In this document: positions 1,690 through 35,560 of the stretch, piece after piece | Numbering within the stretch: position 1 is the stretch's first letter | How the letters are laid out: every line of letters begins with the position of its first letter | Virus record (IMG/VR): IMGVR_UViG_3300045988_042432 | Direction: 5' to 3' (one strand) | Origin: a virus | Length of the DNA: 64,000 bases | The notes under the pieces: model-generated | The model's input: only the letters and a program-made list of their open reading frames with translations | Database searches by the model: none | Told to the model about the DNA's origin: nothing | Position numbers and translations under genes: made by a program

Positions 1690-1754
1690 ATCACTTAAAT
1701 TTTAATCATTATAAAATAAAGGAGGGATGCTACTCCCTCCTTCTTGTACATATA

Positions 1755-3710: not shown

Positions 3711-3728
3711 TTTAATATATTATGTGTT

Positions 3729-4712: not shown

Positions 4713-4720
4713 ATGTCAAA

Positions 4721-5797: not shown

Positions 5798-5811
5798 AAA
5801 ATTTAATGATG

Positions 5812-8785: not shown

Positions 8786-8790
8786 ACTTA

Positions 8791-10781: not shown

Positions 10782-11475
10782 TACAACCTCCTATTTGTTC
10801 TATGATTCGTTCAGCTTCAGCTAACTGATTAGATTGAACCATATATTTGATTACATTAATAGCCATCCAGACTAAATCTCTCTTGTAGGATAATTCGGCC
10901 GCTACAGCATTCTTACTCCAACATTTACTGAAACCTCTGCTATTAAATATTTGCTGGCACAAAGATATATAACATTTCTTAAGAAAACAAATAGACACGT
11001 AATTATTATATGTCCTAGAAATTGTAGTATCTTCTATGTTCCTCTCTACTATCTCATCTACAGTTACGGTCGTAGATGTGCCATTAAAATACTTATAGAT
11101 GTAGATGCCGTCCGAATAGTACACAGTGGCATACATAGTTACAGCTGAACCAGCCGTTTTACCTATCTCTCTATCAAACCAATCTTTAGTCGGCAGAACT
11201 ATATGATATACATTAAACCACCCATCAAACCCTACTGGCATAGTTACTGACTTATTACCGTCATCATGTAAAGTGTAAACAGGAAGTTGTATTTCAGGCC
11301 CATCTGCCTTATTATGTTGTAAGACATCAATAGATACAGTGTCAGAGTACTTGAATCTGTTCTTGACGATGACTGAAGAAGATTCAGGCAAATAGCCATT
11401 CTCTCCTGTACCAGTATCGTCAAGTATGATTACCTTACAGCTATCGTTAGTGCAAACTTTAATTTTTAATTCCAT
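10717..11475 (-). CDS. hypothetical structural-module protein
   Basis: 252-aa ORF whose start abuts the stop of the portal-sized gene. Confidence 0.6.
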   Translation of the reverse strand: MELKIKVCTNDSCKVIILDDTGTGENGYLPESSSVIVKNRFKYSDTVSIDVLQHNKADGPEIQLPVYTLHDDGNKSVTMPVGFDGWFNVYHIVLPTKDWFDREIGKTAGSAVTMYATVYYSDGIYIYKYFNGTSTTVTVDEIVERNIEDTTISRTYNNYVSICFLKKCYISLCQQIFNSRGFSKCWSKNAVAAELSYKRDLVWMAINVIKYMVQSNQLAEAERIIEQIGGCNGLCKSEYSKWPEQGCGCSQR

Positions 11476-13676: not shown

Positions 13677-13965
13677 TACAACTCTCTAATCCGTTATATT
13701 GTTTATATCCTAGGAAATAATGTGTGTCGCCTAATCTTCTATCTCTTAATTCCTGTCTAAGAAATTTAAGATACGCTACTTCACCACCCTCAAACGATAT
13801 AATAAGTGGCTTGTCTATATTATTCATGCCAAGTGTTAACTTATAACCCCTATGTGTCCCCTCGGCAGTTTGTAGCTCTTCTAGCTTTAATTTAGCCACA
13901 TATTCTTTATGATAAATCTGTTTGAATAAATCTCTGATTGCTACTTCTAATTCTTGTAGGGTCAT
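13654..13965 (-). CDS. hypothetical protein
   Basis: 103-aa ORF between the terminase and portal genes; overlaps both. Confidence 0.5.
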   Translation of the reverse strand: MTLQELEVAIRDLFKQIYHKEYVAKLKLEELQTAEGTHRGYKLTLGMNNIDKPLIISFEGGEVAYLKFLRQELRDRRLGDTHYFLGYKQYNGLESCNECTEQE

Positions 13966-19661: not shown

Positions 19662-20355
19662 AATTCATTTTAAATTTCTTCCTAATTGAGTTATAATCTA
19701 ATAAGGTAGATAGAGGTTGGATACACGGAGCAATAACGGAGTTATAGTACCCCAAATAGTACTCTTTAGTAACTGGATAAATAACAACAATCATTCCTAT
19801 AGGTCCATCAATTCCAGCAATCGGATACATCGCAGCAGACTTTGCTCCAGATTCTTCTAATAAAGCTACTAAATTAGGGAATGTTCTGTAGTAGTTCTCA
19901 ATAGTGTCCATTCTAATGAATTGGTTGTCATTAATCCTTCCAAGCTCATCACCGTAGTTAATATACTCCAACTCTTTCCATATCTTAATAGTTGCCTTAG
20001 TTTCATACCCTCTTCTCTTCTCTGTAAGAGCTGTTAAATAGCGATATGATAAACCATGTGTACTTTGTAAGGTATTATGGTAATTCAATAACAAGACATT
20101 CGACGCATCCTTATCTTCCATAAGAATATGCTCTATGTGCCCGTTAACTTGTGGAGTAATCATCTCTGTATATTTCTCAGCTAATACCTTCTCCGTAACA
20201 GCTGCCTGTCTATAATCTTCTAAAATAGCTTTAGTGTGTGAAGAGAAATGAAGCTCTACCATCAAGAATGCAAGCATTATAATGACTATCGTCTTAACAC
20301 CAGAACTCCAACTGTCAATCCACCTGTACACCTCTTTTAGTTTGCCCAATAACAT
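19597..20355 (-). CDS. membrane-anchored protein, function unknown
   Basis: 252-aa ORF with an N-terminal hydrophobic helix (VKTIVIIMLAFLMV). Confidence 0.55.
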   Translation of the reverse strand: MLLGKLKEVYRWIDSWSSGVKTIVIIMLAFLMVELHFSSHTKAILEDYRQAAVTEKVLAEKYTEMITPQVNGHIEHILMEDKDASNVLLLNYHNTLQSTHGLSYRYLTALTEKRRGYETKATIKIWKELEYINYGDELGRINDNQFIRMDTIENYYRTFPNLVALLEESGAKSAAMYPIAGIDGPIGMIVVIYPVTKEYYLGYYNSVIAPCIQPLSTLLDYNSIRKKFKMNYESRQEEQGNMLQRFFPYVLE

Positions 20356-20446
20356 TAATCTACTGATTTAAAGGTTAGAGATTAATAATAGTTTAGTTTC
20401 TTTATTACTTATTTACATTGACACCTTAAATCATTAATTCATCTGA

Positions 20447-20482
20447 TTTGTTTGATAATGTGCAAATTTAGCAATACCTTTG
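20447..20482 (+). promoter_or_regulatory. Bacteroides-type promoter (TTTG about 20 nt upstream of TAccTTTG)
   Basis: TTTGTTTG at 20447-20454 and TACCTTTG at 20475-20482, 35 nt before the ATG at 20517. Confidence 0.45.
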
Positions 20483-20516
20483 TGAATAAAAAAGTGATTT
20501 AACATGTAATTTAATT

Positions 20517-20819
20517 ATGGAATTTAACGCAGAGGAATTATCAAGAATTAATGAGGCTCTGAAAGAGTTACTCGATGATGCGGACCTAGAAGAGGTTCCC
20601 ATGTTTAGATGTGGTAGTAAGTTAGTAAGGAAAGATAAAAATGGAAGCAAGATTCATATTAAGAAGAAGAATCGCGGCAAATTTACGGCATCAGCTAAGA
20701 AAGCTGGACAGAGTGTTCAAGAACATGCTAGGTCTGTACTTAACAATCCTAATGCGACTCCGTTACAGAAGAAGAGAGCTAATTTTGCACGGAATGCGGC
20801 GTCTTGGTCTAAGAAGTAA
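20517..20819 (+). CDS. small basic protein
   Basis: 100-aa ORF, first gene of the rightward block. Confidence 0.6.
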   Translation: MEFNAEELSRINEALKELLDDADLEEVPMFRCGSKLVRKDKNGSKIHIKKKNRGKFTASAKKAGQSVQEHARSVLNNPNATPLQKKRANFARNAASWSKK

Positions 20820-20821
20820 AC

Positions 20822-21493
20822 ATGAAGAAAGAAGAAAGATTGCAACAGCAATGTGACGTATGTGGGAGGTTGCTAGACAAGAATATAAGCAACTTCAGAA
20901 AGTATTCACGCAAGACAAACGGCTTAAACTTTCACACTACATGTAGGGATTGTGAAGACCGAATCAAATTGAATACCGAATGGAAAGATGGGAAGCTCTT
21001 ATGCCACATATGTGGAGAATATAAAGAGCCTAGTGAGTTTACTTATGCAGGGGCTAATAAATACACTTTACGTCAGAATAAGGAGTGTAGGTGCAATTCC
21101 TGTAAACTAGAACAAAGGAAAGCTGCTATAGCTACTTATGATAACGACGTTAAACTAGAGAAGGTTTTACAAGCACGTTGGCTTGCAGCTAAATCCAGAG
21201 CTATAGACAAATCTATACCTTTCACTATTACTAAAGAAGATTTACTAACCGTATGGAAGGCACAAAATGGCAAGTGTGCAATTTCTGGATTAGACATGAC
21301 TTATGAATTAGGAGAAGGTCGAATCTATACGAATGTTAGCATTGACCAGATAATGCCCTCAAAAGGTTATACTATAGATAATATACAATTAGTATGTATG
21401 GCAGTTAATCAACTTAAGTCAGATTTAGATATGGATACTATTTTAATTCTGTGTTCTGCAATAGTTGATAATGCCGCTAAATGGAAGCATTAA
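20822..21493 (+). CDS. Cys-rich HNH/EndoVII-type nuclease-like protein
   Basis: 223-aa ORF with several CxxC pairs and a C-terminal CAISGL...SIDQIMPSKGYTIDNIQLVCMAVNQLK, as in phage proteins annotated as HNH. Confidence 0.5.
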   Translation: MKKEERLQQQCDVCGRLLDKNISNFRKYSRKTNGLNFHTTCRDCEDRIKLNTEWKDGKLLCHICGEYKEPSEFTYAGANKYTLRQNKECRCNSCKLEQRKAAIATYDNDVKLEKVLQARWLAAKSRAIDKSIPFTITKEDLLTVWKAQNGKCAISGLDMTYELGEGRIYTNVSIDQIMPSKGYTIDNIQLVCMAVNQLKSDLDMDTILILCSAIVDNAAKWKH

Positions 21494-21495
21494 CT

Positions 21496-21861
21496 ATGAA
21501 ATTTAAGTACGACAAATCTAAAGGATTGCTATTCTTTATCAATCCGTTACTTCCGGTAAAAGGATATTCATTTATGAATATTTGTGCTATTATGTTTACT
21601 AGAAGTGAGGATTATATAAAGAGAATGAGTCAAGCTACAGTTACACATGAGAAGACTCACACGAAACAGATATTAGAAATGGGAATAGTATTCTTCTATT
21701 TATGGTATGTAATAGAGTGGTTTATTAAATTACTAGCTAGTGGCAATGCTCACACTGCCTATAGAAACATATCATTTGAAAGAGAAGCTAGATACGCGGC
21801 TGAACATCTTGAATACGAGAGGAAGACTTTCAGCTATGGCTGGTTTAAGTGGTTATTATGA
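21496..21861 (+). CDS. membrane protein with HExxH motif (putative zinc metallopeptidase-like)
   Basis: VTHEKTHTKQ...FEREA plus a hydrophobic helix. Start moved to the ATG just after the upstream stop. Confidence 0.5.
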   Translation: MKFKYDKSKGLLFFINPLLPVKGYSFMNICAIMFTRSEDYIKRMSQATVTHEKTHTKQILEMGIVFFYLWYVIEWFIKLLASGNAHTAYRNISFEREARYAAEHLEYERKTFSYGWFKWLL

Positions 21862-21916
21862 GAATCTCAACTAAAACAGATACAAACTAACGTAGAATTA
21901 TTAAACAATAACAATC

Positions 21917-22307
21917 ATGACTTTAATTCAAAATGAAGACAACAAATGCCCTACCACTAAACAGGTGAATGATGCACTCGAGTCTATGGGGGGGGGTTCA
22001 GACCCTGGTTTTAACAACATATAATTTAATTAACACAGATAGAAGTAGTCCCTTAGAAGTAAACAGTTCAGACCAGGCGGTGATGGATACTGTAAAGTCT
22101 AATGCGGAGAAAAATATTCCATTTCAATTACTGTACTATGGAGTAATTAGTGGAACTAGTTCAGTACAATTACTTCCAGTATCACTATATGGTATACCGT
22201 TAGCTAATGTGTTCACATTATACGTAAATCAAAGTGGTTTACAGCACTTTAGCCTTAACAAAGGCTCCAATCAAAAGTGGACTGCTTCTACACTTAGTAA
22301 TTCTTAA
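21917..22307 (+). CDS. G-tract family member P1, frame-broken at G9
   Basis: ATG 21917 gives MTLIQNEDNKCPTTKQVNDALESMGGG and then stops. The long frame 21969..22307 continues only if the tract is 8 or 11 G. Confidence 0.6.
21988..21996 (+). repeat. homopolymer G9
   Basis: Read directly: ATGGGGGGGGGTTCAG. Confidence 0.95.
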
Positions 22308-22338
22308 CATTTAAGAATTAAAGTACATTAATCGCAGT

Positions 22339-22542
22339 ATGAGAAATTTTATATTTGACGTCTGGGTTTGGTCTAAAGCCAAACACTCCAGACTACTTAA
22401 GCAAATAAGGGTAAAGGCACTATCGTTTCCTTCAGACATGTTCTGTTTGAACGAAGCTGCTAAAGATGCAGATGTATCACCCTACATGAAATCAGATGAA
22501 TTTGAAGTAACAATTGGTAATTTAAGAGAATATCAAGAATAA
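22339..22542 (+). CDS. hypothetical protein
   Basis: 67-aa ORF; its stop overlaps the ATG of P2 (TAATG). Confidence 0.55.
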   Translation: MRNFIFDVWVWSKAKHSRLLKQIRVKALSFPSDMFCLNEAAKDADVSPYMKSDEFEVTIGNLREYQE

Positions 22543-23037
22543 TGGAAAGTACTAATGAATTAGTAACAGCAGCTGAAGCTAGAGCAGAAGGCTTAAGCTT
22601 AGACGGAGTTGCGAACAATAGATGTATCACTAAGCAACAATTCAACGATAACCTACCGTCGGGGGGGGGGTATTGCTGACGCTATAGATTTATTAAACGG
22701 TTCACTAAGCGGTAGCACCCTAATATTCTTTAATAACACTACTGTAGACACTACAATGGGTATATCAATCATAAATATGTATGGTCAAAGCACATCGGCT
22801 ACACCAGATATTCCTGCTTCATCTATGGTGGTATACCCTATAGCAGGTGCTATAAGAAATGTAGCTTTGTTTGGCAATAGTGTGATTGGAAGTAATACTT
22901 ACGTAGCATTCCTATTAAATAATGCAAAGAATATGAATTACTATTCTAATTATGAAACAGATAAACTTATTATAGGAACTAATCAGAATTTGCCAGTACA
23001 GGGTCTACTTGCCGTTATGTGTATAAACAATACATAG
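22542..23037 (+). CDS. G-tract family member P2, frame-broken at G10
   Basis: ATG 22542 gives MESTNELVTAAEARAEGLSLDGVANNRCITKQQFNDNLPSGGGYC-stop. The frame 22609..23037 continues only if the tract is 9 or 12 G. Confidence 0.6.
22661..22670 (+). repeat. homopolymer G10
   Basis: Read directly: CCGTCGGGGGGGGGGTATTGC. Confidence 0.95.
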
Positions 23038-23049
23038 CAAGTATTTAAA

Positions 23050-23592
23050 ATGACAAATAAAATTGCAACAGAACAATATTTAATTAATTTAGCTGGTGGA
23101 GGTACAAATACTCCAACCAAGTGTGCCACTAGAGATAGAGTAGAGTTCTTCGGACTTGAAACTAACGATAATTACGCTAATAATCAGTTAGTTAAGGAAG
23201 AGGATATACAGTTGTCAACATTTCAGTATGACTTCAATATACATGTTTCAATAACTAACTCTGGGCTTACGTCTAAATCCTATGACTTTGTAGCAGATGT
23301 TTACATAGATGGAGTTCCAGATGGGTTTATAACAATTCCTAGGTCTGGAACTCTAGACTATCAAGGGGCAACTTTCTTTGACAGAAACTTCCACTTTAAT
23401 TTACCAACTGATTTAACTAGTGTCTCTAAATTATTGTTCACTGGATATTTCAGTACATACAGGGTGACTGTAGATGCGGATAGTGTAACAAATAATGCAG
23501 TATGCCAATCTGGGGTAACTACTGAAATACCAATAAATCAGGCATATATAGGAGGTGACACAGCTAATATTTCTATAAATGTAATTATATAA
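23050..23592 (+). CDS. G-tract family member P3 (intact, no homopolymer)
   Basis: 180-aa ORF MTNKIATEQYLINLAGGGTNTPTKCATRD...NNQLVKEEDI. The GGG is encoded by GGTGGAGGT at 23095-23103. Confidence 0.75.
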   Translation: MTNKIATEQYLINLAGGGTNTPTKCATRDRVEFFGLETNDNYANNQLVKEEDIQLSTFQYDFNIHVSITNSGLTSKSYDFVADVYIDGVPDGFITIPRSGTLDYQGATFFDRNFHFNLPTDLTSVSKLLFTGYFSTYRVTVDADSVTNNAVCQSGVTTEIPINQAYIGGDTANISINVII

Positions 23593-23834
23593 TGAAGTTT
23601 GTAACATTCTTAAAGCAAGTATTCACATCCCACTCTGGCATATCATCTAAGAGACTCTGCGGAGTAGTAGGGTGGTTTGTCTGCTTGGGAGTGTTAATAT
23701 ACTGTGCAATAAACGTAATTCAAGCCCCATTAATGATAGACACAGTCCTGTTGTGTTGTATGGGATTGCTTGGCATAGATTCAGTAACAGGAATATGGAA
23801 GAGATTCACCAATAACGATAAATCGAATAAATAA
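23592..23834 (+). CDS. small two-TM membrane protein (holin-like; speculative)
   Basis: 80-aa ORF with two hydrophobic helices; start and stop overlap its neighbours. Confidence 0.5.
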   Translation: MKFVTFLKQVFTSHSGISSKRLCGVVGWFVCLGVLIYCAINVIQAPLMIDTVLLCCMGLLGIDSVTGIWKRFTNNDKSNK

Positions 23835-26800
23835 TGAAAGTAATACCTAAACTACAACAAGGAAACACCATAGAGTCCGATAATACTAAAGTAGTTAGGC
23901 CAGAAATTCATGAACCTATTAAAGCTAAACCTAGACAGTATTCCATTGTAGATTTAGGTGGAGAACCTTCTAATGATACCAGGTCAGCTGCTGAAAGAAA
24001 TAGAGACTATTGGCATCCTATTAAGGGAGCTAAAGCCAGATTCAAGGCTTCTATGTCCAATGAGACTAATCCTCTAGTTGGAATAGAAAGAACTATACTT
24101 CCTTCAGCAGCTGGTGCTGCATTAGTAACAACTCCAGCCGCTGTTGTAGGAGGAGCTTTAGGTAATATGACTGTGGATAAGCTTACCGGGGGCTGGGGTA
24201 ATTGGTTAGAAGATAAGACTGGCATTCCGTCTGAAATTGGAATTTATACTAATCCAGGAGCTTGGTATGGTGGTGCTAAAGGATATAAGATTGGAAAGAA
24301 CAAGCTAATAACTAAATCAATTAAAGGTGATGCTGACCTAGCTTGGAATCCTATTAACAAGAATCATTGGATATTTAATAAGGAAGCAAGGACTCCTTCT
24401 AATATAGCAATGGCAACAGCTAACAGAATTACTCCATTTCTATCTAAGGTAGAGAAATTACCATTAAAAGTGGCTGCTTATAAAGCTGCCAAGAGAACTA
24501 ACGGTAATGCATCAGTAAGTTTGCAAGATATAAAAACAATGCCAGCCGACTACACAGGTTCTTCAATATTAGGTGGAGGAAATTTAGAAGGTAGGAATCT
24601 ATTAGCTAAATATATATTTGATGAGAATCCAGTAGTTAAAAGAATGTTCTTTAATAAAGCTACTAGTAATATCAAACCTATTAGCCGTAATGAAGCAAGG
24701 AGAGGATTTAGTCATGGGGATAGATATGAGCAGCTTTATCCTGGAGTTCATAACAGAAGATACGAAATGAGTGCAGTAGTACCCTCTGGTAGACCTCTTA
24801 AGTTTGAGAATGTTACAAAGTTTACTGATTATGCTGGAAAGAATCCAATCGGCAAGGTTGTTGGTAAGGAGACTGAACCAGTAATGCGTATGGGAGATAA
24901 AGAGTTTATGACCTTTAGGCAGCCAGGAACCGATTATATAGGTCCTATTGATGACGTTGCTGGACACTTGGTTAAGTTTCAAATGAATAAGGGTAAGCTT
25001 AGACAGACTTCTCAAGATATGTGGAAATTTAATCCTGCTGACTATGCTAAGAGGTGGAATGATTCTCCTAATACTGCTAACCAAGTTAGGCTTATTAAAC
25101 AAGCTGCATTAATGGATAAAGTAGGTCGTCCTTTCATATTGCAGCAATCTAATCCTATATGGATTGAAGGTAAGTCTGTTAGAAATCCGGAATTGGTAAC
25201 TATGGCACATGGTGGAAGATTTGATTTTAAGAAGTCCCCTCTGCTAAAGAAACAAGAAGAGATTAACGGTAAGAGGGATATGCGTAAGAAGTTCATCAAA
25301 TCAAGTCGCCCAACCTATAAGAAGCGAATCAAGAAAGCTCAACAAGGAATGAAGTTCGTAAGTTATAATCCAGTAAGTAATCCTACAATAGATTACACTG
25401 ATATTACTAATCCTATTAATCCATTTAGTGAGTATAATTATAATACAACTTACGATAAACCAGAAGCTTTAGTAGTACCAGTAAGAGATACTGAAGAAAC
25501 TGATGTAGTAGCTAATAATCCTACAGTAGAGCCAGTAATTAATAAGCCAGTAGCTAGTAATCCTGTTACCAATAAACCTGTTACTGCCAACTCAACTTGG
25601 AAGAGTCCATATACTAACAGAAGACAATGGTCTACAGAACTTATTAATGCCTATAAGAAGGCAGGTATTACTAATGATAATGCAATTAGAATGCTATTAG
25701 CACAAGACGCATTAGAATCTAGTTGGGGTAAGTCTGCACAAGGTAAGTACAACTTTGGCAATTTAACTACTGGTAGTTCATGGAAAGGTGATTATGTAAC
25801 TGGTAATGATAAAAATGCTAGAGGTGAAGCTATTAAGCAGAAGTTTAGGTCTTATAATTCTATGGATGAGTATGCAGCAGATAAGATACAATTCTTAAAG
25901 AGACTATATGACTTTGATGAGAATGATGATATTAATAAGTTTGTAGCTAAGCTTACTGGTTCTAATAAAGGTAAGAGAAGATATGCAGAAGCTAAGGAGT
26001 ATGCCAATTCATTAAGAGGCGTGTATAATAGTTTCAAAGCAGGTGGTATTATTAAATATCAAGAACCAGCACAACCTATAGCTAGAAGAGATGCTATTAA
26101 GGATTACAGACCTGAAATTCCACTTAGTCCTATTAAGCAACCAGTTAAACCTTATATGCCAACTCAACAGCCAGTGCTATCTTCTGATAATAGAACTGGT
26201 TGGGAGAAAGAAGTATCTAGGCAAATCAAAGCTGATAAAGCTAAGAATGATAAACTTTATGGTAATCAGCATACTTGGAACTGGTCTGCACCATTTACCA
26301 ATGCTAGAATTACTAAAGATAATGCTAGTGCTATATTTGATTTTGATAAGTCAGCAGCTATGAGTACATTTGCAATTGGACAGGGAATTGCTAGTCCTGT
26401 TACTACTGCAACATCTATAGCAGGTTCACTAGTTGGAGCTGGTATAGGTAATAAGGTAGCAGGAGAGAAAGGTGCTCTAGTCGGTGGATTTGTTGGTGGA
26501 ATGGTTAATCCTAGGTTTAGATTTGGGAAGAGTAGTTCTACTAAGAGACGGGAACATGGTAATGTAGCAGATAACGTTAATTTACATAGTAAGATGAATT
26601 TCGATGATTATGACCAAATTGTTAATGCAATAGATAATGAGGAGGAGTTATATAGACTTTATCTACAGAATGAAACTGTAGCTAAGAGAATACGTGAAGT
26701 TTCTCCGTCTTATGTAAAGGAGGTTAATAACTTTATTAAGACTAAAATCAAGAAGAGGTTTGGTAAGCCAACTAATGGTAATTATCAGGCTGCCAATAGA

Positions 26801-27430
26801 GTAGCAGATGATGCTCCAGAAGTTACATTTGGAGGAGTTCCGTTTAAGTATCAAGAGAATGTCTACAATATAGAACCAGGTAAACCTATACCCCATTTGG
26901 AGTTTGTAGCACATGAGAATAGCCATGGAATAGACAGGGCTGTGAGTAGATTACTAAGTACTGATTATCTAAGGAATTTATTGAATCCAAGTGACAAACT
27001 TCCGTTTAACAAATGGATTAATGAAGTTAAGAAGAGTAAGGCTGTAGTTGATTATATAAAGAGAAGTAGAAATTTAGATGTAAACAACCCAGCAGATTAC
27101 TCTAAAATAGAGAAGGAAGTTTATAAATACTTCTCTGACCCTACAGAGATTAAGGCATACTTCAGTAGGATTCCATTTGAGAAGTATAAGAAGTCAGTAG
27201 ATAGGAGCTTTGACGGGAAGGTTATTAATAATCCAGTATCAAAGGATATATTCCAAATCACTGATGCAGATATACTAGATGATGTTAGATTACAACTTAT
27301 AGCTTCTATCTATAAACGAAACGACATGGCGTCTTATGAAGCATTAAAGAGTAATCTTACTAATAAATTATGGGGAGTGTCTGCACTAGGTATTCCTGCA
27401 ATCAACACATTAATTAATGGATATGAATGA
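23834..27430 (+). CDS. large virion-associated cell-wall hydrolase (FlgJ/glucosaminidase-like domain) with C-terminal HExxH
   Basis: 1198-aa ORF with LLAQDALESSWGKSAQGKYNFGNL...KFRSYNSMDEYAADKIQFL (glucosaminidase pattern) and a later FVAHENSHGID. Confidence 0.7.
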   Translation: MKVIPKLQQGNTIESDNTKVVRPEIHEPIKAKPRQYSIVDLGGEPSNDTRSAAERNRDYWHPIKGAKARFKASMSNETNPLVGIERTILPSAAGAALVTTPAAVVGGALGNMTVDKLTGGWGNWLEDKTGIPSEIGIYTNPGAWYGGAKGYKIGKNKLITKSIKGDADLAWNPINKNHWIFNKEARTPSNIAMATANRITPFLSKVEKLPLKVAAYKAAKRTNGNASVSLQDIKTMPADYTGSSILGGGNLEGRNLLAKYIFDENPVVKRMFFNKATSNIKPISRNEARRGFSHGDRYEQLYPGVHNRRYEMSAVVPSGRPLKFENVTKFTDYAGKNPIGKVVGKETEPVMRMGDKEFMTFRQPGTDYIGPIDDVAGHLVKFQMNKGKLRQTSQDMWKFNPADYAKRWNDSPNTANQVRLIKQAALMDKVGRPFILQQSNPIWIEGKSVRNPELVTMAHGGRFDFKKSPLLKKQEEINGKRDMRKKFIKSSRPTYKKRIKKAQQGMKFVSYNPVSNPTIDYTDITNPINPFSEYNYNTTYDKPEALVVPVRDTEETDVVANNPTVEPVINKPVASNPVTNKPVTANSTWKSPYTNRRQWSTELINAYKKAGITNDNAIRMLLAQDALESSWGKSAQGKYNFGNLTTGSSWKGDYVTGNDKNARGEAIKQKFRSYNSMDEYAADKIQFLKRLYDFDENDDINKFVAKLTGSNKGKRRYAEAKEYANSLRGVYNSFKAGGIIKYQEPAQPIARRDAIKDYRPEIPLSPIKQPVKPYMPTQQPVLSSDNRTGWEKEVSRQIKADKAKNDKLYGNQHTWNWSAPFTNARITKDNASAIFDFDKSAAMSTFAIGQGIASPVTTATSIAGSLVGAGIGNKVAGEKGALVGGFVGGMVNPRFRFGKSSSTKRREHGNVADNVNLHSKMNFDDYDQIVNAIDNEEELYRLYLQNETVAKRIREVSPSYVKEVNNFIKTKIKKRFGKPTNGNYQAANRVADDAPEVTFGGVPFKYQENVYNIEPGKPIPHLEFVAHENSHGIDRAVSRLLSTDYLRNLLNPSDKLPFNKWINEVKKSKAVVDYIKRSRNLDVNNPADYSKIEKEVYKYFSDPTEIKAYFSRIPFEKYKKSVDRSFDGKVINNPVSKDIFQITDADILDDVRLQLIASIYKRNDMASYEALKSNLTNKLWGVSALGIPAINTLINGYE

Positions 27431-27800
27431 AATTAATTTGGTTTTACAGAAGTTTCCAAGCATAAATAGGGAAGAATTATTGACACTAACAGATGCCCTA
27501 CTTTGCTATTTGTATAACAAATGCCCGAAGTCTTTAGCTTCTCTTAAAGCTAAAGTTGATAAATGGTGTAGTGATACTATGCCAATTCCAAACTACTACT
27601 TAATGGGGTATAAAGAAATTGTTGAATCAGAAGAGTTCTTTAATCTACTTAGTAAAGTAGAGAAGTACGAGCACCTTAGTGGTAATCTATTTACTACAGG
27701 ACTTAAAGTAATTGGGACTGATATTAAATTAAATGAGTATTCAGATGTCATTCCAGAAAGAGGTGACGGACCAATAATAGATAATTTCTTTGAAATGTAA
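27417..27800 (+). CDS. hypothetical protein
   Basis: 127-aa ORF. Confidence 0.6.
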   Translation: MDMNEINLVLQKFPSINREELLTLTDALLCYLYNKCPKSLASLKAKVDKWCSDTMPIPNYYLMGYKEIVESEEFFNLLSKVEKYEHLSGNLFTTGLKVIGTDIKLNEYSDVIPERGDGPIIDNFFEM

Positions 27801-27885
27801 GTAATTTCACATTATAGATAAGGAACGTAATGGTTATCGAAATGGTCAACTATAATTGGTACTCCGGTAACTATATCTAAAATGA

Positions 27886-28050
27886 ATGAATATGATAACA
27901 GCAGAATATTGGATGGAAGGAATCAATAAAGTGCTTGATAGATATGGACTATCAAGAGAGGAGTTTTGGAAAGACCCCGAAGCATTCATTAATAATTTGG
28001 AAGATAAGGATGCAAAGCTTACATTGGAGTTCTACATGCAAATAGTATAA
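27886..28050 (+). CDS. small hypothetical protein (54 aa, below the ORF-track cutoff)
   Basis: Own translation: MNMITAEYWMEGINKVLDRYGLSREEFWKDPEAFINNLEDKDAKLTLEFYMQIV. Confidence 0.45.
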   Translation: MNMITAEYWMEGINKVLDRYGLSREEFWKDPEAFINNLEDKDAKLTLEFYMQIV

Positions 28051-28074
28051 CTAATAATAATTAAATGAATTAAT

Positions 28075-28335
28075 ATGACTAATGAACAATTAAATCAATA
28101 CTATAGTAAGGATGCAGATAAGAAGCAGTGTTGGGTAAGTAAAGACCATAACTGTCCATTAAAGGAACAATGTAATGGACTTGTTAAGCCAGAATGTAAA
28201 GAGCATATAGACAATGAAGAAGCCTGCCATGTTGTTGATAAGATGATAGAATGGTATTACCAAGTGGAAGAACCTGAATTTCTAAAGTTCTATAATTGTC
28301 ACTTAGAGATGTTAGAGAGACATGGAAGGAATTAG
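28075..28335 (+). CDS. Cys-rich small protein
   Basis: 86-aa ORF; ends in TAG. Confidence 0.55.
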   Translation: MTNEQLNQYYSKDADKKQCWVSKDHNCPLKEQCNGLVKPECKEHIDNEEACHVVDKMIEWYYQVEEPEFLKFYNCHLEMLERHGRN

Positions 28336-28616
28336 TTATTCCTTCCTCTGTTAGCAGGGATATTTAATGGACGTAAATTATTAAGCTTATTAGTACCACC
28401 TTCAGAAATTGGTTTAATATGGTCTACTTCCCAACCCCAAGGATGTTCAGCTTTACCATAAGCATCACGATGTATATATTCACCACTGGCATCTTTGCGA
28501 AGTCCGTCCTGTACTAAAGTGGCTTTACTGAATATTATATCCAGTTCTTCTTCTGTCCATTTAGGTCTTACTTCCATAATCTTAGATATTAGAATTAATA
28601 ACTGCAAATATAGCAA
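28332..28616 (-). CDS. HNH endonuclease
   Basis: 94-aa ORF with WEVDHIKPISEGGTNKLNNLRPLNIPANRGRNN. Confidence 0.75.
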   Translation of the reverse strand: MLYLQLLILISKIMEVRPKWTEEELDIIFSKATLVQDGLRKDASGEYIHRDAYGKAEHPWGWEVDHIKPISEGGTNKLNNLRPLNIPANRGRNN

Positions 28617-28791
28617 TAATTATTAATATTCCAAGACATCCTAAGAGAGTATGGAACGCATTGACAGGTAAGTATTTTGTTTATCCATTAATAGGAACTA
28701 CACTAATAGGAGGAATGAATTATGAGAAGATTTAATAAATATGGATTTGGTACAACAGCTCCAGCAATTATAAATAATAGAGAGTAATATT

Positions 28792-29058
28792 ATGGAAGAA
28801 TATCCTTATACAGAGGTTGTAGACGGTAAAGAGTACACCTATATTAATATGGGTACGTACTATGTAACTAACTTAGAGACTGGAGACAGAAGACTTGTAC
28901 AGAGAGAAGTGCCATTCTTATTCGATGATGAGTATGATACAGGTGTAAAAGATGAAGATGATACTGATTGCTTAACTGGGCATGAAGAGATTCTTAACCC
29001 ATTTAAAGCAGAATATGATGAGAATGGTAAGGAGATATTTATACCTAAAACCAAATGA
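28792..29058 (+). CDS. acidic small protein
   Basis: 88-aa ORF. Confidence 0.55.
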   Translation: MEEYPYTEVVDGKEYTYINMGTYYVTNLETGDRRLVQREVPFLFDDEYDTGVKDEDDTDCLTGHEEILNPFKAEYDENGKEIFIPKTK

Positions 29059-29071
29059 AGAAATAAATACA

Positions 29072-30155
29072 ATGAGTAGAATAGTAACACAAAGTAAATT
29101 AAACGAATTAACAGGTAAGAATATAGATTACGGGAGGGGGGGGGTATTGTCCTCACTACCAAACCATAGTTAGTCTCTGGGGTAGCGTAGTTGCGTCTAG
29201 TAACTACCAGCCAAATCAATTAGTTAAAGAAGAAGATATAGTTGTAGACAAAGACCTATTCCTTATTAATGCGGAGACAGGTAGTTTATACTTTGCTGGC
29301 GGTGGTACCTATGCTCAAATTCCAGCTATAGACGGCCATGAGGATTTTATATACATAGCTGGAGGAGGTGAAGCAATTGGAGCATTGTCTATGCTTGGAG
29401 GATTGTATGTAGTTAATCAGTCTACCAAACAGTGGGAATTAAAATACAAAGATACTGTAAGAGCTTATGGTTATGCTCACTTGGCTAGGTTCTCTACTGG
29501 CTGGGTATTTTATAAGGGAGCAGGAGGAGACGGTAAGAACTATGTTATTATAGTGTATGATGACGGTACAGTAAAGGAGCGTAGTGTTGTAGGCCCAGTC
29601 AGTAGCATATCAACTGGGCCTTATGATTACTGCTGTGTTGGGGCATCATATCAGGGAGGAGCTAGAATATATACCTTCTTGGCTACATCTGTACCAGATT
29701 CTCTTACTTATTATACTCCAGGAATGTTTACACCAAGTGCAGTAATACAAGGGTTTCATTCTTCGCCAAGAAGTGTAGTATATAGCACTACAAGTAATTA
29801 TACATACGTTAGTACTAACCCAACTGGAACTCAATGGACTGCTGCAACCACTAGACCACAACTAACAGGTTTGACTAAAGGATTGTATGTAAATGAAGCT
29901 GGGACTAATACATTTATGCTTATAGGAAATAATATGAAGAGTGTGTCTACAGATAGGGGTAATAATTGGACTACATCTACACTAGGTGAATATACTCTTA
30001 CTGATTTAATATATGTAGATTCAAATTGGTATGCAATTGGTTCGAATGGAACTAAAAGACTCCTATTGCAGAATACAGCTTCTACATTTGACCAAAGTAA
30101 TAAAATACTTGACTTGCCTGACTATTCTAGACAAGTAATTAAAATTAATACATAA
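29072..30155 (+). CDS. G-tract family member P4, frame-broken at G9; C-terminal beta-propeller-like domain with Asp-box
   Basis: ATG 29072 gives MSRIVTQSKLNELTGKNIDYGRGG... and then stops. The other frame is open from the tract to 30155 and contains NYQPNQLVKEEDI (family motif) and STDRGNNWT. It is in frame with 8 or 11 G. Confidence 0.6.
29136..29144 (+). repeat. homopolymer G9
   Basis: Read directly: CGGGAGGGGGGGGGTATTGT. Confidence 0.95.
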
Positions 30156-30170
30156 CAGGTTGATATAATA

Positions 30171-30215
30171 AAGCCCGAGCCTAGTAATTAAACTAAGTTC
30201 GGGCTTTGTTGTTTA
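30171..30215. terminator. hairpin between convergent genes
   Basis: AGCCCGA...TCGGGCT stem followed by TTGTTGTTT. Confidence 0.45.
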
Positions 30216-30337
30216 TAATAAGATTCCGTCTCGGTAAGTGAGAATACGTCAGAGCACACTGTCGTAGACCACCAAGACGAAGATGTAAAAACTATCTTAG
30301 GCTTTGTGCTTAGCATCTACTGGCTGGTATCAATTTA

Positions 30338-31192
30338 TTATATAGCTGTAGTGTCTATAGAGAATGTCACGTACCACCAATATAAATCATCTGCATTATC
30401 TATCCCAACTTCCAGTAGCTGTGACCAAGTTACTCCTTTGCATTTCCGTAAGTCCTTAAGTACATTCAGCACATCTTCCATGGGATTAATGATACATCCT
30501 TCAGCCCCATTTGTTCCATTGCTAATTGTCATATAAACTTGTAATTTAGATTCACCTCTAGGAACAACGGCAAATGTTTCATAATGGTCTTTTATGTTCA
30601 AAATAATATCTTCTATATGTTCTAGAACATTGGCTTGTAAGGGTTCGCCAGTCAGGTTACACATTCTTAAGCCTTTGGGAGTTCTTTCATAATATAAATT
30701 CTTTAAAGCTCCAAATGTATCATACCAAGTTCCAGAGTTAAACAGTTTAATTACTTGTTTACGTTCCTCCTCATTATAAGGACTCCACCTATTCCCAAAT
30801 CCTCTACTGGTTCTATCATTATATGTTTCTGTTCCCGATTGTACTATATAGTCAATAATAGTGTCCAAATTAGATTCTATTATTTCAGTAGCATAGTCTA
30901 AGGGATACTTTCCGTCAACTACTTTAGTAGTATCAGTATCAAGAATGGGATATTCTTCATGCGAGAACAATAGCTCTCTAGTTTCGGAAGTAGAAAATAT
31001 GCAGGCATTTGTGTCAAATAGAAAGCTGTCAGCCTGATGTTTTACCCCTGTTAGACAGTCAATACAGAATTGTTTTATCTTATCTCTTTGTGCCTTTAAT
31101 GATGATGCTATATCATTACAATTGAACTGTAAATTTATAGATTGCATATCAAAGTAAAGGATTAGCCATTTATTATACTCCTCATTTATCAT
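30338..31192 (-). CDS. hypothetical protein
   Basis: 284-aa ORF. Confidence 0.65.
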   Translation of the reverse strand: MINEEYNKWLILYFDMQSINLQFNCNDIASSLKAQRDKIKQFCIDCLTGVKHQADSFLFDTNACIFSTSETRELLFSHEEYPILDTDTTKVVDGKYPLDYATEIIESNLDTIIDYIVQSGTETYNDRTSRGFGNRWSPYNEEERKQVIKLFNSGTWYDTFGALKNLYYERTPKGLRMCNLTGEPLQANVLEHIEDIILNIKDHYETFAVVPRGESKLQVYMTISNGTNGAEGCIINPMEDVLNVLKDLRKCKGVTWSQLLEVGIDNADDLYWWYVTFSIDTTAI

Positions 31193-31198
31193 AGTTCA

Positions 31199-31480
31199 TC
31201 AATCAAAACTTCCAAAACTAGCTACTAAGCTCATTGGTATGTGTATTGTATCTTTTACTCTGCGAGTACCGTCCTCATCACAATGATTCTCAATACCTCT
31301 TCCCAATATTATTGATTTGTCGTCCATATATGCCAAGTAGCCCACTGTGGTTATCAAATTCTCATCCGGACATTCTCCTAGTATATGTCCTCCACGCCAT
31401 ACGTATCTATCGTCCCAATGAACCCACATAGGTTCTCCTACTTCATATCCTAGTTTCTGTACATTTAATTTATTATCCAT
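31199..31480 (-). CDS. hypothetical protein
   Basis: 93-aa ORF. Confidence 0.6.
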   Translation of the reverse strand: MDNKLNVQKLGYEVGEPMWVHWDDRYVWRGGHILGECPDENLITTVGYLAYMDDKSIILGRGIENHCDEDGTRRVKDTIHIPMSLVASFGSFD

Positions 31481-31481
31481 A

Positions 31482-31937
31482 TTAACTACCTACAAGTATT
31501 TTAACATTACCAGTCTCTATATCGAGAGTAGCTTTCTCAAGCCATAAATCTTCTATACGATGTCCCCATATTCCATACTTACCTGGATTCTCCTTCTCTT
31601 CTTCGTAAATCCTTCTATATGCAAGGGTTATTTCATTTATTAAATCATTCAAATTGCGGCATTTAGCAGTGAATGTATACGGATTCTTTAATGGATAACT
31701 AATAGTTATATTTACTGTATGGTCTTTAAAGTAGTCAGCAGCGTTGCTAAATAGACTTACTGCACAGTTAATAGAGTATTTATGAATCTTTATATTTACT
31801 CCTTTAGGAAGCAACTCTTGTTCTTTCTCTATTGTGAATTTAGATGGAAGTCTGTTTATCACTTCCTGTACATCGAAGTCCTTGTCCCTATACACACTTA
31901 TCCCAGATTCTTTATGCTCCACATATATACAATACAC
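31482..31937 (-). CDS. hypothetical protein
   Basis: 151-aa ORF. Confidence 0.6.
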   Translation of the reverse strand: MYCIYVEHKESGISVYRDKDFDVQEVINRLPSKFTIEKEQELLPKGVNIKIHKYSINCAVSLFSNAADYFKDHTVNITISYPLKNPYTFTAKCRNLNDLINEITLAYRRIYEEEKENPGKYGIWGHRIEDLWLEKATLDIETGNVKILVGS

Positions 31938-31977
31938 TAGTCTATACTGACTATCTCCTCCACTTCATCAACATTAA

Positions 31978-32187
31978 TTAATCGCTTTCCCATTCTTCTT
32001 CTAATGTATTATATAATTTAATAAAATCTTCTCCTTTATATTCACATACACATTCATTATCCTTATTAAAGATAGTAAGCATGTGCATATCCTTAGATTG
32101 TCCATTGTCTACATAAGAATACATCCCGTGTACCAATACGTATTCGGGATGTTTCTCATTCCAGTTATTTACAAGTTCCTTCATCAC
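31978..32187 (-). CDS. hypothetical protein
   Basis: 69-aa ORF. Confidence 0.55.
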   Translation of the reverse strand: MMKELVNNWNEKHPEYVLVHGMYSYVDNGQSKDMHMLTIFNKDNECVCEYKGEDFIKLYNTLEEEWESD

Positions 32188-32425
32188 TAAGTGTTATTCC
32201 ATTACTAGCATAAGATATAAATGTACCTGTGTCATATGGTCTCCAGCCACTATTATCTCTACGTATAGTAGTTGTCTGTCCTACGTTAAATTGTGGAATC
32301 TCTACTATGTTATCAAGAACTCTAAATAAGTCCTCTATTGATAAGTTTGGAAGTATCTGATGTAAATTCTCTAATGTCTTTCTAACGTCAATCATAATAG
32401 TATATTTTAGCAAATTGTACATCAC
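32165..32425 (-). CDS. hypothetical protein
   Basis: 86-aa ORF. Confidence 0.55.
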   Translation of the reverse strand: MMYNLLKYTIMIDVRKTLENLHQILPNLSIEDLFRVLDNIVEIPQFNVGQTTTIRRDNSGWRPYDTGTFISYASNGITLSDEGTCK

Positions 32426-32627
32426 CTATACTAATATTAGGCAGTAGTACCTTGTGTAGTTCTGTAGATTCAAATGTATCTTTATATTCCCTAGGAACTA
32501 ACAGAGTATCAACATGATGTCCTCTAGATATTCTAGCTAGATAGGAGATTTTACTGTCATCAAAGTCTGTAAGTTCCAACATAATGGCATTATGATGCCT
32601 AGGACAATTTCCACTAAGTATTATCAT
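32388..32627 (-). CDS. hypothetical protein
   Basis: 79-aa ORF. Confidence 0.55.
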   Translation of the reverse strand: MIILSGNCPRHHNAIMLELTDFDDSKISYLARISRGHHVDTLLVPREYKDTFESTELHKVLLPNISIGDVQFAKIYYYD

Positions 32628-32629
32628 AA

Positions 32630-32788
32630 TTACTTCTCCTGTAGTAAGATTCTCATCTCTTCCTTCCAGTTCTTATACCACTGTTCATTAATAAGGTCTT
32701 CTGATTCAATTAATTCAATCAAATCCTTAGTGCCATTATGAATTTGGCTACATAAATACTGTGCTAATTGGTTCTTTAATTCATCCAT
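32630..32788 (-). CDS. small hypothetical protein (52 aa, not in the ORF track)
   Basis: Own translation: MDELKNQLAQYLCSQIHNGTKDLIELIESEDLINEQWYKNWKEEMRILLQEK. It fills the gap between its neighbours exactly. Confidence 0.45.
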   Translation of the reverse strand: MDELKNQLAQYLCSQIHNGTKDLIELIESEDLINEQWYKNWKEEMRILLQEK

Positions 32789-32793
32789 AATTA

Positions 32794-32991
32794 TTAGTCT
32801 TTAGTTTTAACATAAAGTTGGCAATGGCAAGTCCCTTCTTCCATTTCCCTAAACTCTTTACACATACATACTGTATCTTCATCTCTTACTAAAGAGCATG
32901 GACAATACTTCTTACCATACTTCTCTTTATTCCTTTTAAGTCCTGCTAGGACTGTTTCCTTTACTTCTTTATTATCAGTTACTTTAATCAT
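32794..32991 (-). CDS. small Cys-rich protein, ferredoxin-thioredoxin-reductase catalytic-chain-like motif (tentative)
   Basis: 65-aa ORF with CPC-x9-CMC-x11-CHC spacing. Confidence 0.4.
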   Translation of the reverse strand: MIKVTDNKEVKETVLAGLKRNKEKYGKKYCPCSLVRDEDTVCMCKEFREMEEGTCHCQLYVKTKD

Positions 32992-33635
32992 TGCGCTGAC
33001 GCTGTATACAGTTCTATGTTTAGGTCTATTTCCCCACCAGTAAATCTAAATACTCTACCAGAATTATTCATTTTGACCCACCTTCCAGATGAAGGGAATG
33101 TTACTCCTTCTGCCCAATTCTCAGATTGAGAATCTACTGCTAATGTAATTTGAGACACTTGCCTAAGCATCACGTATCCCTCAAAACGTATCCAAACAGG
33201 TGTATTATATGGGTCTTGGTTAGAAGGTGCTAATTTCTCTAAGTAATATTTAAGAGGATTTGCTAAAGTCTTAGTGTACGTTCGTTCTCCTTGCTCTAAT
33301 CTTGGAGTAATTGCAAAGTACATAGTATTGTCAGAATACGTAAACGGCTCTCCATTCACTGAACTCTCATTAACAAATGAGAAACGTACTCTAAATTGCT
33401 GTATATTATTAATTGGCATATCCTGCCAACCATAATGAAGGATTACATTTGGAGCAGTTATAGCTGCCTCTATACCTTCTAACTCCACTAACTGATTATC
33501 AGTATAACTAAATCCACTTTTAATCTGACATCCTAATTCAAGTGCTCTAGCTTTAGTACAGCACTTATTATCAATTACCGAGAGAGTCCCCCCCCCCATA
33601 GTCTTAGCTTCTAATTCTGTTGCTATTTTACTCAT
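32988..33635 (-). CDS. G-tract family member P5 (in frame through G10)
   Basis: 215-aa ORF MSKIATELEAKTMGGGTLSVIDNKCCTKARALELG...DNQLVELEGIE. Met-Gly-Gly-Gly is encoded by ATG+G9, seen as C10 on the plus strand. Confidence 0.75.
   Translation of the reverse strand: MSKIATELEAKTMGGGTLSVIDNKCCTKARALELGCQIKSGFSYTDNQLVELEGIEAAITAPNVILHYGWQDMPINNIQQFRVRFSFVNESSVNGEPFTYSDNTMYFAITPRLEQGERTYTKTLANPLKYYLEKLAPSNQDPYNTPVWIRFEGYVMLRQVSQITLAVDSQSENWAEGVTFPSSGRWVKMNNSGRVFRFTGGEIDLNIELYTASAQ
33588..33597 (-). repeat. homopolymer G10 (C10 on the plus strand)
   Basis: Read directly: GAGAGTCCCCCCCCCCATAG. Confidence 0.95.
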
Positions 33636-33864
33636 GGTTCTTGTATCGTTCTGTAATATTAATTAAATCCTTGTTGTCATGCAGTAACTCTAAGAAAGCC
33701 TTGTCTACTGCTATATCAAATGCAGTATTAGTAATGATTGGTTCTTTATGCACTCTCTCAATCTCTTCTCTAATCATTTGTTCAGATAATTGAGTGTATA
33801 ATCGTCTGGTATAATCATTATACCAAGGCTCTTTAAATGTTACTATAATTTCTTCTCCTGTCAT
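33628..33864 (-). CDS. hypothetical protein
   Basis: The track ORF starts at a TTG. The ATG at 33864 overlaps the stop of the upstream mini-ORF (ATGA). Confidence 0.55.
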   Translation of the reverse strand: MTGEEIIVTFKEPWYNDYTRRLYTQLSEQMIREEIERVHKEPIITNTAFDIAVDKAFLELLHDNKDLINITERYKNHE

Positions 33865-33971
33865 AAATATATTGTCTTTAGTAATCCAGGTAGGCAATAC
33901 TTCCAGCCTGGATATATGTATGCATTCCTATACAATGCTTCTTCTACTAATTCTACTTCTTGTGTTATCAT
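33861..33971 (-). CDS. 36-aa mini-ORF linked to both neighbours by ATGA overlaps
   Basis: Own translation: MITQEVELVEEALYRNAYIYPGWKYCLPGLLKTIYL. Confidence 0.35.
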   Translation of the reverse strand: MITQEVELVEEALYRNAYIYPGWKYCLPGLLKTIYL

Positions 33972-34907: not shown

Positions 34908-35040
34908 TGGTATAAATTTTAGTTATTGTTAATAATTCTGATTTAAGTTCGCAAATATATTATTATTTAATTTGACAATACAAAATTAGTTATATATTTC
35001 AATATTACCAAATGGTAATATAATTATTAATATATATTAT

Positions 35041-35252
35041 ATATTGCCAACTCAAATTCACAGTTAATATTAAGTATATTGCCAACTCGGAACTTCATGA
35101 CGTGCTGTGGCAATCTGCGCCCCTTCGGGGCTTGCTTGCAATTAGTAAGATGAATAGAAATTAATATATATTGCCAACTCACAAGTACGGGTGCTCAAAA
35201 TCACACCCCTCCCACTCCCGGGGTGGGTTGTCATATTATATATTGCCAACTC
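35041..35252 (+). repeat. four direct copies of ATATTGCCAACTC in the divergent intergenic region
   Basis: Exact copies at 35041-35053, 35076-35088, 35168-35180 and 35240-35252, with a partial copy at 35284-35290. GC-rich hairpins lie between the copies. Confidence 0.9.
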
Positions 35253-35560
35253 GGATGCTGGGTGAATATTGCAAGATTTGTGTATATTGCGGATACGACA
35301 GTCGTGTTACCCCTCACACCCCTCACCCATGTTTGGAGAAAATCAAAAGATTTATATCATTTGGTTTTGCTTTATAATATTCATTTTAAAATTATTAGCT
35401 TATGTACACTATTTTATCAAACGGTTTAGTTCGTGTCAATCTTACAGGTTGTTATATCACAATGTCAGAATATAAAGAACTAATTGCAAACGTATAAAAT
35501 TAAATCAAGAACGGGTAAATAAGCCCGTTCTATATTGTTTCACTAATAAATTATTAAACT

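Follow-up and report, generated by a model that had tools for sequence, protein, structure and literature searches.

Can a run of ten guanines inside a phage gene act as a switch, closing and reopening the reading frame as the run loses or gains bases? The question is raised by P5, a minus-strand gene in IMG/VR virus record IMGVR_UViG_3300045988_042432; the whole stretch analysed, 64,000 nucleotides long, is referred to below as the window. Three further genes of the window, P1, P2 and P4, carry runs of the same kind, and a fourth, P3, encodes a related protein without one. We consider it likely that the G10 run of P5 is a homopolymeric contingency locus, a simple sequence repeat (SSR) switch of phase variation placed inside the 5' end of a phage gene.

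A G10 tract sets the reading frame of P5

P5 and its tract are positioned as follows.
33635..32988, minus strand: P5, open reading frame (ORF) of 215 amino acids (aa), in frame (ON) in this assembly
33588-33597, minus strand: G10 tract (C10 on the plus strand), spanning the third base of Met13 and Gly14-16

On its own strand, the gene begins ATG AGT AAA ATA GCA ACA GAA TTA GAA GCT AAG ACT ATG GGG GGG GGG ACT, with codons 13-16 (M-G-G-G) formed by ATG and nine G, which together make the G10 run. The sequence-only reading of this locus had described an intact 215-aa ORF with ATG followed by nine G, a C10 at 33588-33597 and the run in frame, and the sequence bears out each of these statements; the similarity that it saw between the contexts of the runs in P5 (ACT ATG Gn) and P1 (TCT ATG Gn) is equally real. 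When the tract is changed in silico by -2, -1, +1 or +2 bases, the product shrinks from 215 aa to 19-21 aa. P5 is thus ON at G10 (or at G7 or G13) and out of frame (OFF) at G8, G9, G11 and G12.

Four G tracts in a genome that avoids homopolymers

The other members of the set are listed here.
21917..22307, plus strand: P1, OFF; G9 at 21988-21996; ON requires G8 or G11 (129-130 aa)
22542..23037, plus strand: P2, OFF; G10 at 22661-22670; ON requires G9 or G12 (164 aa at G9)
23050..23592, plus strand: P3, 180-aa paralogue with the same N-terminal module, intact here; its GGG is encoded by GGT GGA GGT, with no tract
29072..30155, plus strand: P4, OFF; G9 at 29136-29144; ON requires G8 or G11 (360-361 aa)

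The tracts of P1, P2 and P4 are each one base over frame, and removal of a single G restores products of 129, 164 and 360 aa. The sequence-only reading counted one tract-bearing copy ON, three OFF and one hard-wired ON. The tract states and the tract-less P3 are right, whereas P3 is frameshifted in some relatives: three related genomes (L001, L002, L014) have lost one copy of a TAGAG TAGAG tandem pentanucleotide (window ~23130-23145), and in a fourth (L005) one base of a CC has been deleted.

No homopolymer of at least 7 nt other than the four G tracts occurs in the 64-kb window, which has a GC content of 36%, and in all four tracts the G lies on the sense strand within the first 130 nt of the ORF. 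A pattern of eight G has 10 matches against 0.13 expected from dinucleotide shuffles, none of which yielded as many. Under first-order Markov (Markov-1) simulation, G/C runs of at least 9 number four against ~0 expected, and A/T runs of at least 7 number none against ~20 expected (~11 A, ~9 T). Shorter runs are also rare (A5, 16 against 85 expected; A6, 2 against 26; G5, 3 against 9), and over the full 64 kb the depletion extends to runs of all four bases. This depletion suggests selection against slippage-prone runs everywhere except at the four G tracts. That a run-avoiding genome keeps four sense-strand runs of G9-10 within the first 130 nt of ORFs argues for selection to keep them.

Tract length and ON/OFF state vary among relatives

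Loci related to the window were fetched around the gene for a 1198-aa protein that follows P3; 76 were obtained, and ~25 IMG/VR genomes among them carry G runs in the four genes. Each tract keeps its position and its exact flanks; lengths vary between G6 and G11, and every locus differs in ON/OFF state. P1 (G6-G11) is ON in 7/25, P2 (G6-G11) in 12/23, P4 (G8-G10) in 2/12 and P5 (G6-G10) in 8/20. Ten distinct ON/OFF patterns occur among the 15 genomes with enough coverage.

Public metagenome contigs were scanned for the P5 tract, with 14 exact bases upstream and 17 downstream required. The 37 independent human-gut contigs recovered carry G8 (7 contigs), G9 (12), G10 (9), G9A (7), G8A (1) and G7A (1), giving 16 ON and 21 OFF. 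Among 21 pairs of P5 alleles that diverge by at most 1% (no more than 6 of 597 downstream positions), the tract length differs in 16 and the state in 10; since near-identical alleles differ in this way, the run changes much faster than point substitutions accumulate. Mixed states at every locus, ten patterns in 15 genomes and the differences between close pairs together support the earlier proposal that the assembly is a snapshot of a combinatorial switch.

The same variation is visible in protein databases. P5 clusters comprise 215-aa proteins (1150 and 1636 members) and shorter ones of 166, 167 and 143 aa (1253, 526 and 1337 members). Four contigs fetched for the three representatives of the truncated clusters carry G8 or G9 with flanks identical to those of the window, so the short P5 calls are OFF alleles restarted at internal start codons. 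The Gly loop in P5-family clusters consists of G, GG, GGG or GGGG, which indicates that in-frame length changes are tolerated at this site. Locked-ON alleles also occur, in which a G>A change breaks up or shortens the run and leaves Gly unchanged: ATG GGG GGA GGG in genome L024, an allele of P1 in L035, and the G9A alleles. Across the 37 gut contigs, P5 is in frame in 7/9 A-ended alleles and in 9/28 pure-G alleles.

Several points weigh against a population-level switch. All tract-length differences are between assemblies, and many of the supporting contigs are short-read assemblies of low coverage (~1-6x). At each of the four loci more alleles carry G9 than any other length, irrespective of whether G9 places the gene ON or OFF, which could partly reflect assembly bias; taken with the mostly ON state of A-ended alleles, this mode suggests that mutation settles at an equilibrium of about nine G, rather than that one state is selected. 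No genome is OFF at every locus, against 2.3 expected, which is a trend only (P ~0.06-0.08, uncorrected for relatedness). Extra lesions downstream of the tract are present in 5/37 metagenome P5 alleles, so some error or real decay exists among them.

Low coverage and the uniform G9 mode are also what a sequencing or assembly artefact would produce, in which every gene really has an in-frame tract of unvarying length and the OFF alleles arise from miscalled homopolymers; long G runs are indeed error-prone on several platforms. We judge this very improbable. Lengths from G6 to G11 recur across many studies and assemblers (IMG/VR, ENA, Logan), and contigs of high coverage (cov 122, cov 23) are included. 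The disparity between A-ended and pure-G alleles in frame is unlike a uniform miscall rate, and the interrupted locked-ON alleles together with the in-frame variants in Gly number (GGGG, GG, G) point to real length evolution.

OFF alleles keep an intact frame under purifying selection

In every OFF allele of the related loci, the full frame downstream of the tract is retained (199 codons in P5). Over these 199 codons, the ratio of nonsynonymous to synonymous substitution rates (dN/dS) is 0.27 for ON-ON pairs, 0.26 for ON-OFF pairs and 0.25 for OFF-OFF pairs. Retention of the frame in OFF alleles, with dN/dS ~0.25 in either state, is the behaviour of hypermutable contingency loci and not of decaying pseudogenes, in agreement with the sequence-only reading, which had argued that the tracts are not simple decay.

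Decay would make these genes dispensable remnants lost by frameshift at a mutational hot spot. Three of the four tract genes are out of frame here, P3 is broken by other lesions in the four relatives named above, P4 is absent from several relatives, and the additional lesions in a minority of P5 alleles fit the same picture. Such decay is hardly credible, however, as the explanation of complete OFF frames and of OFF alleles as constrained as ON alleles. Among near-identical sequences, ON alleles are intermixed with OFF alleles. Across relatives with 75-99% identity in the flanking protein, the tract is kept against synonymous GGN codons, and homopolymers are otherwise purged from this genome.

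Programmed recoding offers another account of intact OFF frames. RNA polymerase could stutter on the slippery G run, or ribosomes could shift by -1 or +1, so that OFF alleles would be leaky and DNA length would act as a rheostat. The run fits the X XXX XXX pattern of a slippery heptamer perfectly; out-of-frame alleles form the majority in P1 (18/25) and P4 (10/12) and yet their frames are intact, which is easier to understand if OFF is leaky; and purifying selection on OFF alleles was measured for P5 only. At classical recoding sites, by contrast, neither the length nor the out-of-frame arrangement changes among relatives, whereas here run length spans G6-G11 and in-frame alleles are frequent at every locus. 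Recoding is therefore an unlikely substitute for the contingency locus. The G run may also be slippery for RNA polymerase or ribosomes and OFF alleles may be leaky, which would add to the DNA-level variation but cannot replace it.

The tract lies in a shared N-terminal module joined to variable C-terminal domains

P5 is divided into two parts.
33456..33635, minus strand: N-terminal module (N-module), aa 1-60, with the pattern KIATELEA-x-x-M/I-GGG ... NKCCTKARA ... LGC ... Y-x-DNQLV
32991..33455, minus strand: variable C-terminal domain, a predicted all-beta sandwich, replaced by unrelated domains in homologues

P5 homologues are nearly invariant over the first ~60 aa (MSKIATELEAKTMGGGTLSVIDNKCCTKARALELGCQIKSGFSYTDNQLVELEGIE) and then fall to at most 50% identity or continue into unrelated sequence. 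A profile search of 1.84 billion representatives finds the N-module on 303 clusters at 50% identity, with proteins of 43-1121 aa, and nearly all of these match only profile positions 1 to ~65, at the protein N-terminus. Long members bear InlB B-repeat (Flg_new_2) or BspA-type leucine-rich repeat (LRR; LRR_5) domains, and one protein, P0077, is a natural chimera of the P5 N-module and the P4 C-terminal domain.

The sequence-only reading had grouped P1 to P5 as a five-member family. A hidden Markov model (HMM) of the module, built from 11 sequences that all come from outside the window, supports this statistically for P5 (E=4e-28) and P3 (E=8e-14), whereas P2 (0.037), P4 (0.073) and P1 (39) are not significant (E-values at Z=1000). 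P1, P2 and P4 share only short motifs with the module: NKCxTK, NQLVKEEDI and an MS[KR]I[AV]T start, of which P4 has the start and the motif NYxxNQLVKEEDI. P1 and P2 are weakly alike (BLASTP 22% over 118 aa, E ~1e-3), and NKCxTK precedes the tract in each. The position of the tract is not the same either: in P1 and P2 it closes a shorter N-terminal segment, whereas in P5 it falls inside the loop of the module.

Beyond the close relatives, an ATA followed by G11 occurs at the same IGGGG loop of a distant 730-aa N-module member with an InlB B-repeat domain (contig L081, 3052-3062). The 90% cluster of this protein also holds 640-aa members, which may be OFF calls. A back-translated pattern search of viral contigs, which mostly returned the same clade, yielded four more distant N-module members (L100-L103), none with a G run, so the tract is not universal in the N-module family.

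The AlphaFold2 model of P5 (mean predicted local distance difference test score, pLDDT, 80.5) places the Gly loop within a disordered segment of residues 1-18, followed by small N-terminal elements and a confident beta-sandwich. Most of the C-terminal block scores ~85-93, with dips to 66-75 around residues 90-110. The model justifies no fold assignment beyond a predicted beta-sandwich. A PDB sequence search with the family profile returned a chance titin immunoglobulin (Ig) match only (E=0.5). The model of P4 is poor (pLDDT 56) and most resembles Asp-box propellers (GH74, Ycf48 and the sortilin Vps10p domain). An S-x-D-x-G-x-x-W motif (STDRGNNW) can be recognised by eye in the P4 sequence. The P4 C-terminal domain is probably an Asp-box beta-propeller, as a predicted fold class only.

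A proposed switch of exchangeable binding proteins

As at known contingency loci made of simple sequence, replication of the phage DNA would be accompanied by slipped-strand mispairing, and G would thereby be gained or lost frequently and reversibly. The tracts of P1, P2 and P4, being of the same kind, would change independently, and a phage population would then be a mix of up to 16 expression combinations, of which the assembly would record the consensus state, with P5 ON and P1, P2 and P4 OFF. With the tract coding for a Gly-rich loop (GGG) of the ~60-aa N-module, in-frame length changes would be tolerated and an OFF state would cost only a short peptide.

Constant N-termini joined to exchangeable binding domains are the usual architecture of phage fibres, receptor-binding proteins (RBPs) and decoration proteins. 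From its sequence architecture and predicted fold, P5 is probably an exchangeable surface or binding module. The constant N-module with variable, adhesin-type C-terminal domains favours a virion binding module: through the N-module each protein would dock at a shared site, which most plausibly lies on the virion, and the C-terminal domains would serve as alternative binders of ligands or receptors (the beta-sandwich of P5, the putative Asp-box propeller of P4, the LRR or InlB B-repeat domains of distant relatives). Surface capsules of Bacteroidales are themselves phase-variable. Switching could thus diversify adsorption or adhesion specificity and act as bet-hedging against Bacteroidales hosts.

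Features of the window that bear on this role are the following.
241-10560: tail-fibre-like genes
11475-13676: portal
13907-16183: terminase large subunit (TerL; phrog_6681, E=8e-70)
23834-27430, plus strand: 1198-aa protein with a central glucosaminidase domain (PF01832, residues 607-735)

A binding role is favoured by the pairing of one N-module with many C-terminal domains, the BspA LRR and InlB partners, the P0077 chimera, the propeller likeness of P4 and the presence of tail-fibre, portal and terminase genes in the window. The virion assignment meets contrary observations. The start ATG of P5 overlaps the stop codon of an 89-aa ORF upstream (33628-33897; ATGAGTAA), which places P5 inside a minus-strand operon of small genes (FTR-like, described below, and others) and not among recognisable tail genes. 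Pfam and PHROGs assign none of P1-P5 to a family, tail-fibre and RBP families included, and identify only Flg_new_2 and LRR_5 in the long N-module relatives; Foldseek comparison of the P5 model with PDB and BFVD yields only weak Ig-like, pilin-like and uncharacterised phage matches (template modelling score, TM, at most 0.31).

These observations fit a reading in which phase variation is real and the proteins are not virion RBPs. They might instead act inside the cell or be injected and serve counter-defence or host takeover, with the shared N-terminus as a targeting module and switching as a means of evading host sensing, in parallel with the contingency locus agt of T2. The small genes around P5, among them the FTR-like 65-aa ORF and ORFs of no known family, look non-structural, and contingency loci of T-even phages affect defence evasion (PMC12633550). 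We regard a non-virion role as a possibility of lesser likelihood, given that the partners of the N-module are typical extracellular binders (BspA LRR, InlB B-repeat, Asp-box propeller, Ig-like sandwich), that P1-P3 lie directly upstream of the 1198-aa glucosaminidase protein, which is taken to be virion-associated, and that constant N-termini with hypervariable C-termini are the usual pattern of fibres and RBPs.

Under the preferred reading of P5 as a virion binding module, a broader scheme can be put forward tentatively, with less than even confidence. This widespread crAss-like lineage of the human gut would possess a plug-in system in which one N-terminal adaptor docks many unrelated binders onto the virion. 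In this clade, at least four such genes, each gated by its own polyG switch within the adaptor or directly behind it, would act together with module swapping and an invertible two-gene cassette to generate many displayed combinations and counter the capsule phase variation of Bacteroidales.

The 65-aa Cys-rich ORF directly downstream of P5 (32794-32991, minus strand) matches PF02943, the beta chain of ferredoxin-thioredoxin reductase (FTR), with E=1.5e-13. This FTR-like ORF is an unusual phage gene and is fused to P5 in some database gene calls.

The P4-P5 segment occurs in both orientations

29072..33636: segment bounded by the start codons of P4 and P5, in opposite orientation in L005 and L024

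In these two genomes, the inversion breakpoints fall exactly at the two ATGs, which share the imperfect inverted repeat ATGAGTA[AG]AATAG. Inversion brings P4 into the expression slot that P5 holds in the window, so that the two genes swap upstream contexts. Pfam searches of the genes in and beside 29072-33636 identify no recombinase, only FeThRed_B, HNH and proteins of no known family, and no longer inverted repeat joins the P4 and P5 ends among the 25 longest of 196 inverted pairs. A switch operated by a Gin/Cin-type invertase was rejected on these two grounds, the absence of a neighbouring recombinase and of a long inverted repeat in the pairs listed. The inversions in L005 and L024 may derive from one shared event, and no active inversion switch is claimed. 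In L003 and L035, the P4 gene alone is on the other strand.

Comparison with known variable systems

The closest parallel is found in Fletchervirus phages of Campylobacter jejuni, in which hypermutable polyG tracts occur in genes that include RBPs (Sorensen et al. 2021, Cell Rep 35:109214, as relayed by PMC10877375, PMC11959909 and PMC12823448), with up to four RBPs, rbp1-4, per genome (as stated in PMC10877375). As those accounts describe the system, both have polyG inside phage ORFs, gene switching by tract length and several such genes per genome; the concept that adsorption-protein diversity is bet-hedging against a host with phase-variable surface glycans has been advanced there too. A tblastn search with P5 against 50,697 GenBank phage records gave no match at E<=1e-3, and the likeness to Fletchervirus proteins is one of analogy only. 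Fletchervirus is a genus of Campylobacter myoviruses, whereas the phage described here is a crAss-like gut phage of podovirus type with a presumed Bacteroidales host, in a different phage order and a different host phylum. The tract here lies in the Gly loop of a shared N-module, and the RBP role is a proposed one. In Bacteroides, capsules vary mainly through invertible promoters, so the phage polyG tracts would not be a copy of the host mechanism.

Contingency loci have also been described in T-even and other phages, as single-base repeats in ORFs with frequent, reversible frameshifts of +/-1 that create population heterogeneity (Gomez, Barrick & Waters 2025, bioRxiv, PMC12633550). Those of T-even phages are mostly short A runs (at least 6), number more than 100 per genome and affect all gene classes (PMC12633550). 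In the window, unlike these genomes, short runs have been purged and only four long G tracts remain, in one kind of modular gene.

Bacterial SSR loci of Campylobacter, Neisseria and Haemophilus carry G8-G11 near the 5' end, with a mode of 9-10, switch frame between ON and OFF, produce phasotypes and preserve the OFF frame. The P tracts match these traits and differ in residing in a lytic-type phage genome, where variation would depend on the replication machinery of the phage itself.

The combination of a constant N-terminal part with alternative C-terminal parts resembles the Mu G segment with Gin, the P1 C segment with Cin and the R64 shufflon, as do the two orientations of the P4-P5 segment and the chimera of P5 N-module and P4 C-domain. 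These systems differ from the present one, in which no recombinase was found among the neighbours scanned, the repeat is imperfect and ~13-20 bp long, and whole genes change slots while C-termini are not swapped. Diversity-generating retroelements (DGRs) diversify the ligand-binding tail-fibre proteins of phages (BPP-1; the gut 'Quimbyviridae', PMC8008677). Targeted diversification of ligand-binding proteins in gut phages would be common to both, whereas the present locus has neither reverse transcriptase nor template repeat and varies by on/off state and not by amino-acid hypervariation.

PolyG phase variation in phage genes is known from one Campylobacter phage genus and was called exceptional by a 2025 review (PMC11959909), and it was not until 2025 that contingency loci were proposed for phages in general (PMC12633550). 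The literature searched, which included few subscription journals, contained no report of polyG switching in crAss-like phages, and this is absence of evidence only. What is new relative to the known cases is the shared adaptor module and the gut abundance of the lineage. A polyG device in a distant crAss-like lineage would be new, and the lineage is common in human-gut assemblies (clusters of more than 1000 members). If the contingency reading is correct, gut phages hedge their bets genetically, beyond DGRs or host-side capsule switching; if the plug-in scheme is also correct, it would be the first phage-side combinatorial phase variation in the dominant gut phage group. In practical terms, gene calling systematically reports truncated ORFs in place of the tract genes (clusters of 166, 167 and 143 aa, with hundreds to more than 1000 members each). 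The hypothesis is directly testable on existing read archives.

Phage identity and other features of the window

Megablast and tblastn searches of the locus against GenBank phages returned no annotated relative and a single record, MT835470.1, an unannotated entry from human faeces that shares 20000-26080 at 96% and has a 100% identical TerL. TerL is only ~30% identical to those of crAss-like phages (cr1_1 and others) and to those of the crAss-like phages of Flavobacterium and Azobacteroides. The phage is a deep-branching crAss-like gut phage of a podovirus-type lineage, and its host is presumably a member of the Bacteroidales. Related IMG/VR contigs are 91-190 kb long.

P1-P3 and a membrane protein of 80 aa precede the glucosaminidase-domain protein of 1198 aa. 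Conservation of the latter in relatives is confined to its N-terminal ~750-880 aa, and genomes differ from one another across 26080-29060. At 61321-62388 (plus strand), a 355-aa ORF matches phrog_1211 ('2-aminooxy adenylosuccinate synthetase', PurZ/PurA-like; E=6e-45), and it may hint at a genome with a modified base (2-aminoadenine). The divergent intergenic region 34908-35560 separates the minus-strand from the plus-strand gene block and contains a bidirectional terminator-like hairpin at 35508-35531. Within it, at 35040-35255, lie four copies of TATATTGCCAACTC[GA][GA]A, which could be promoter or operator repeats.

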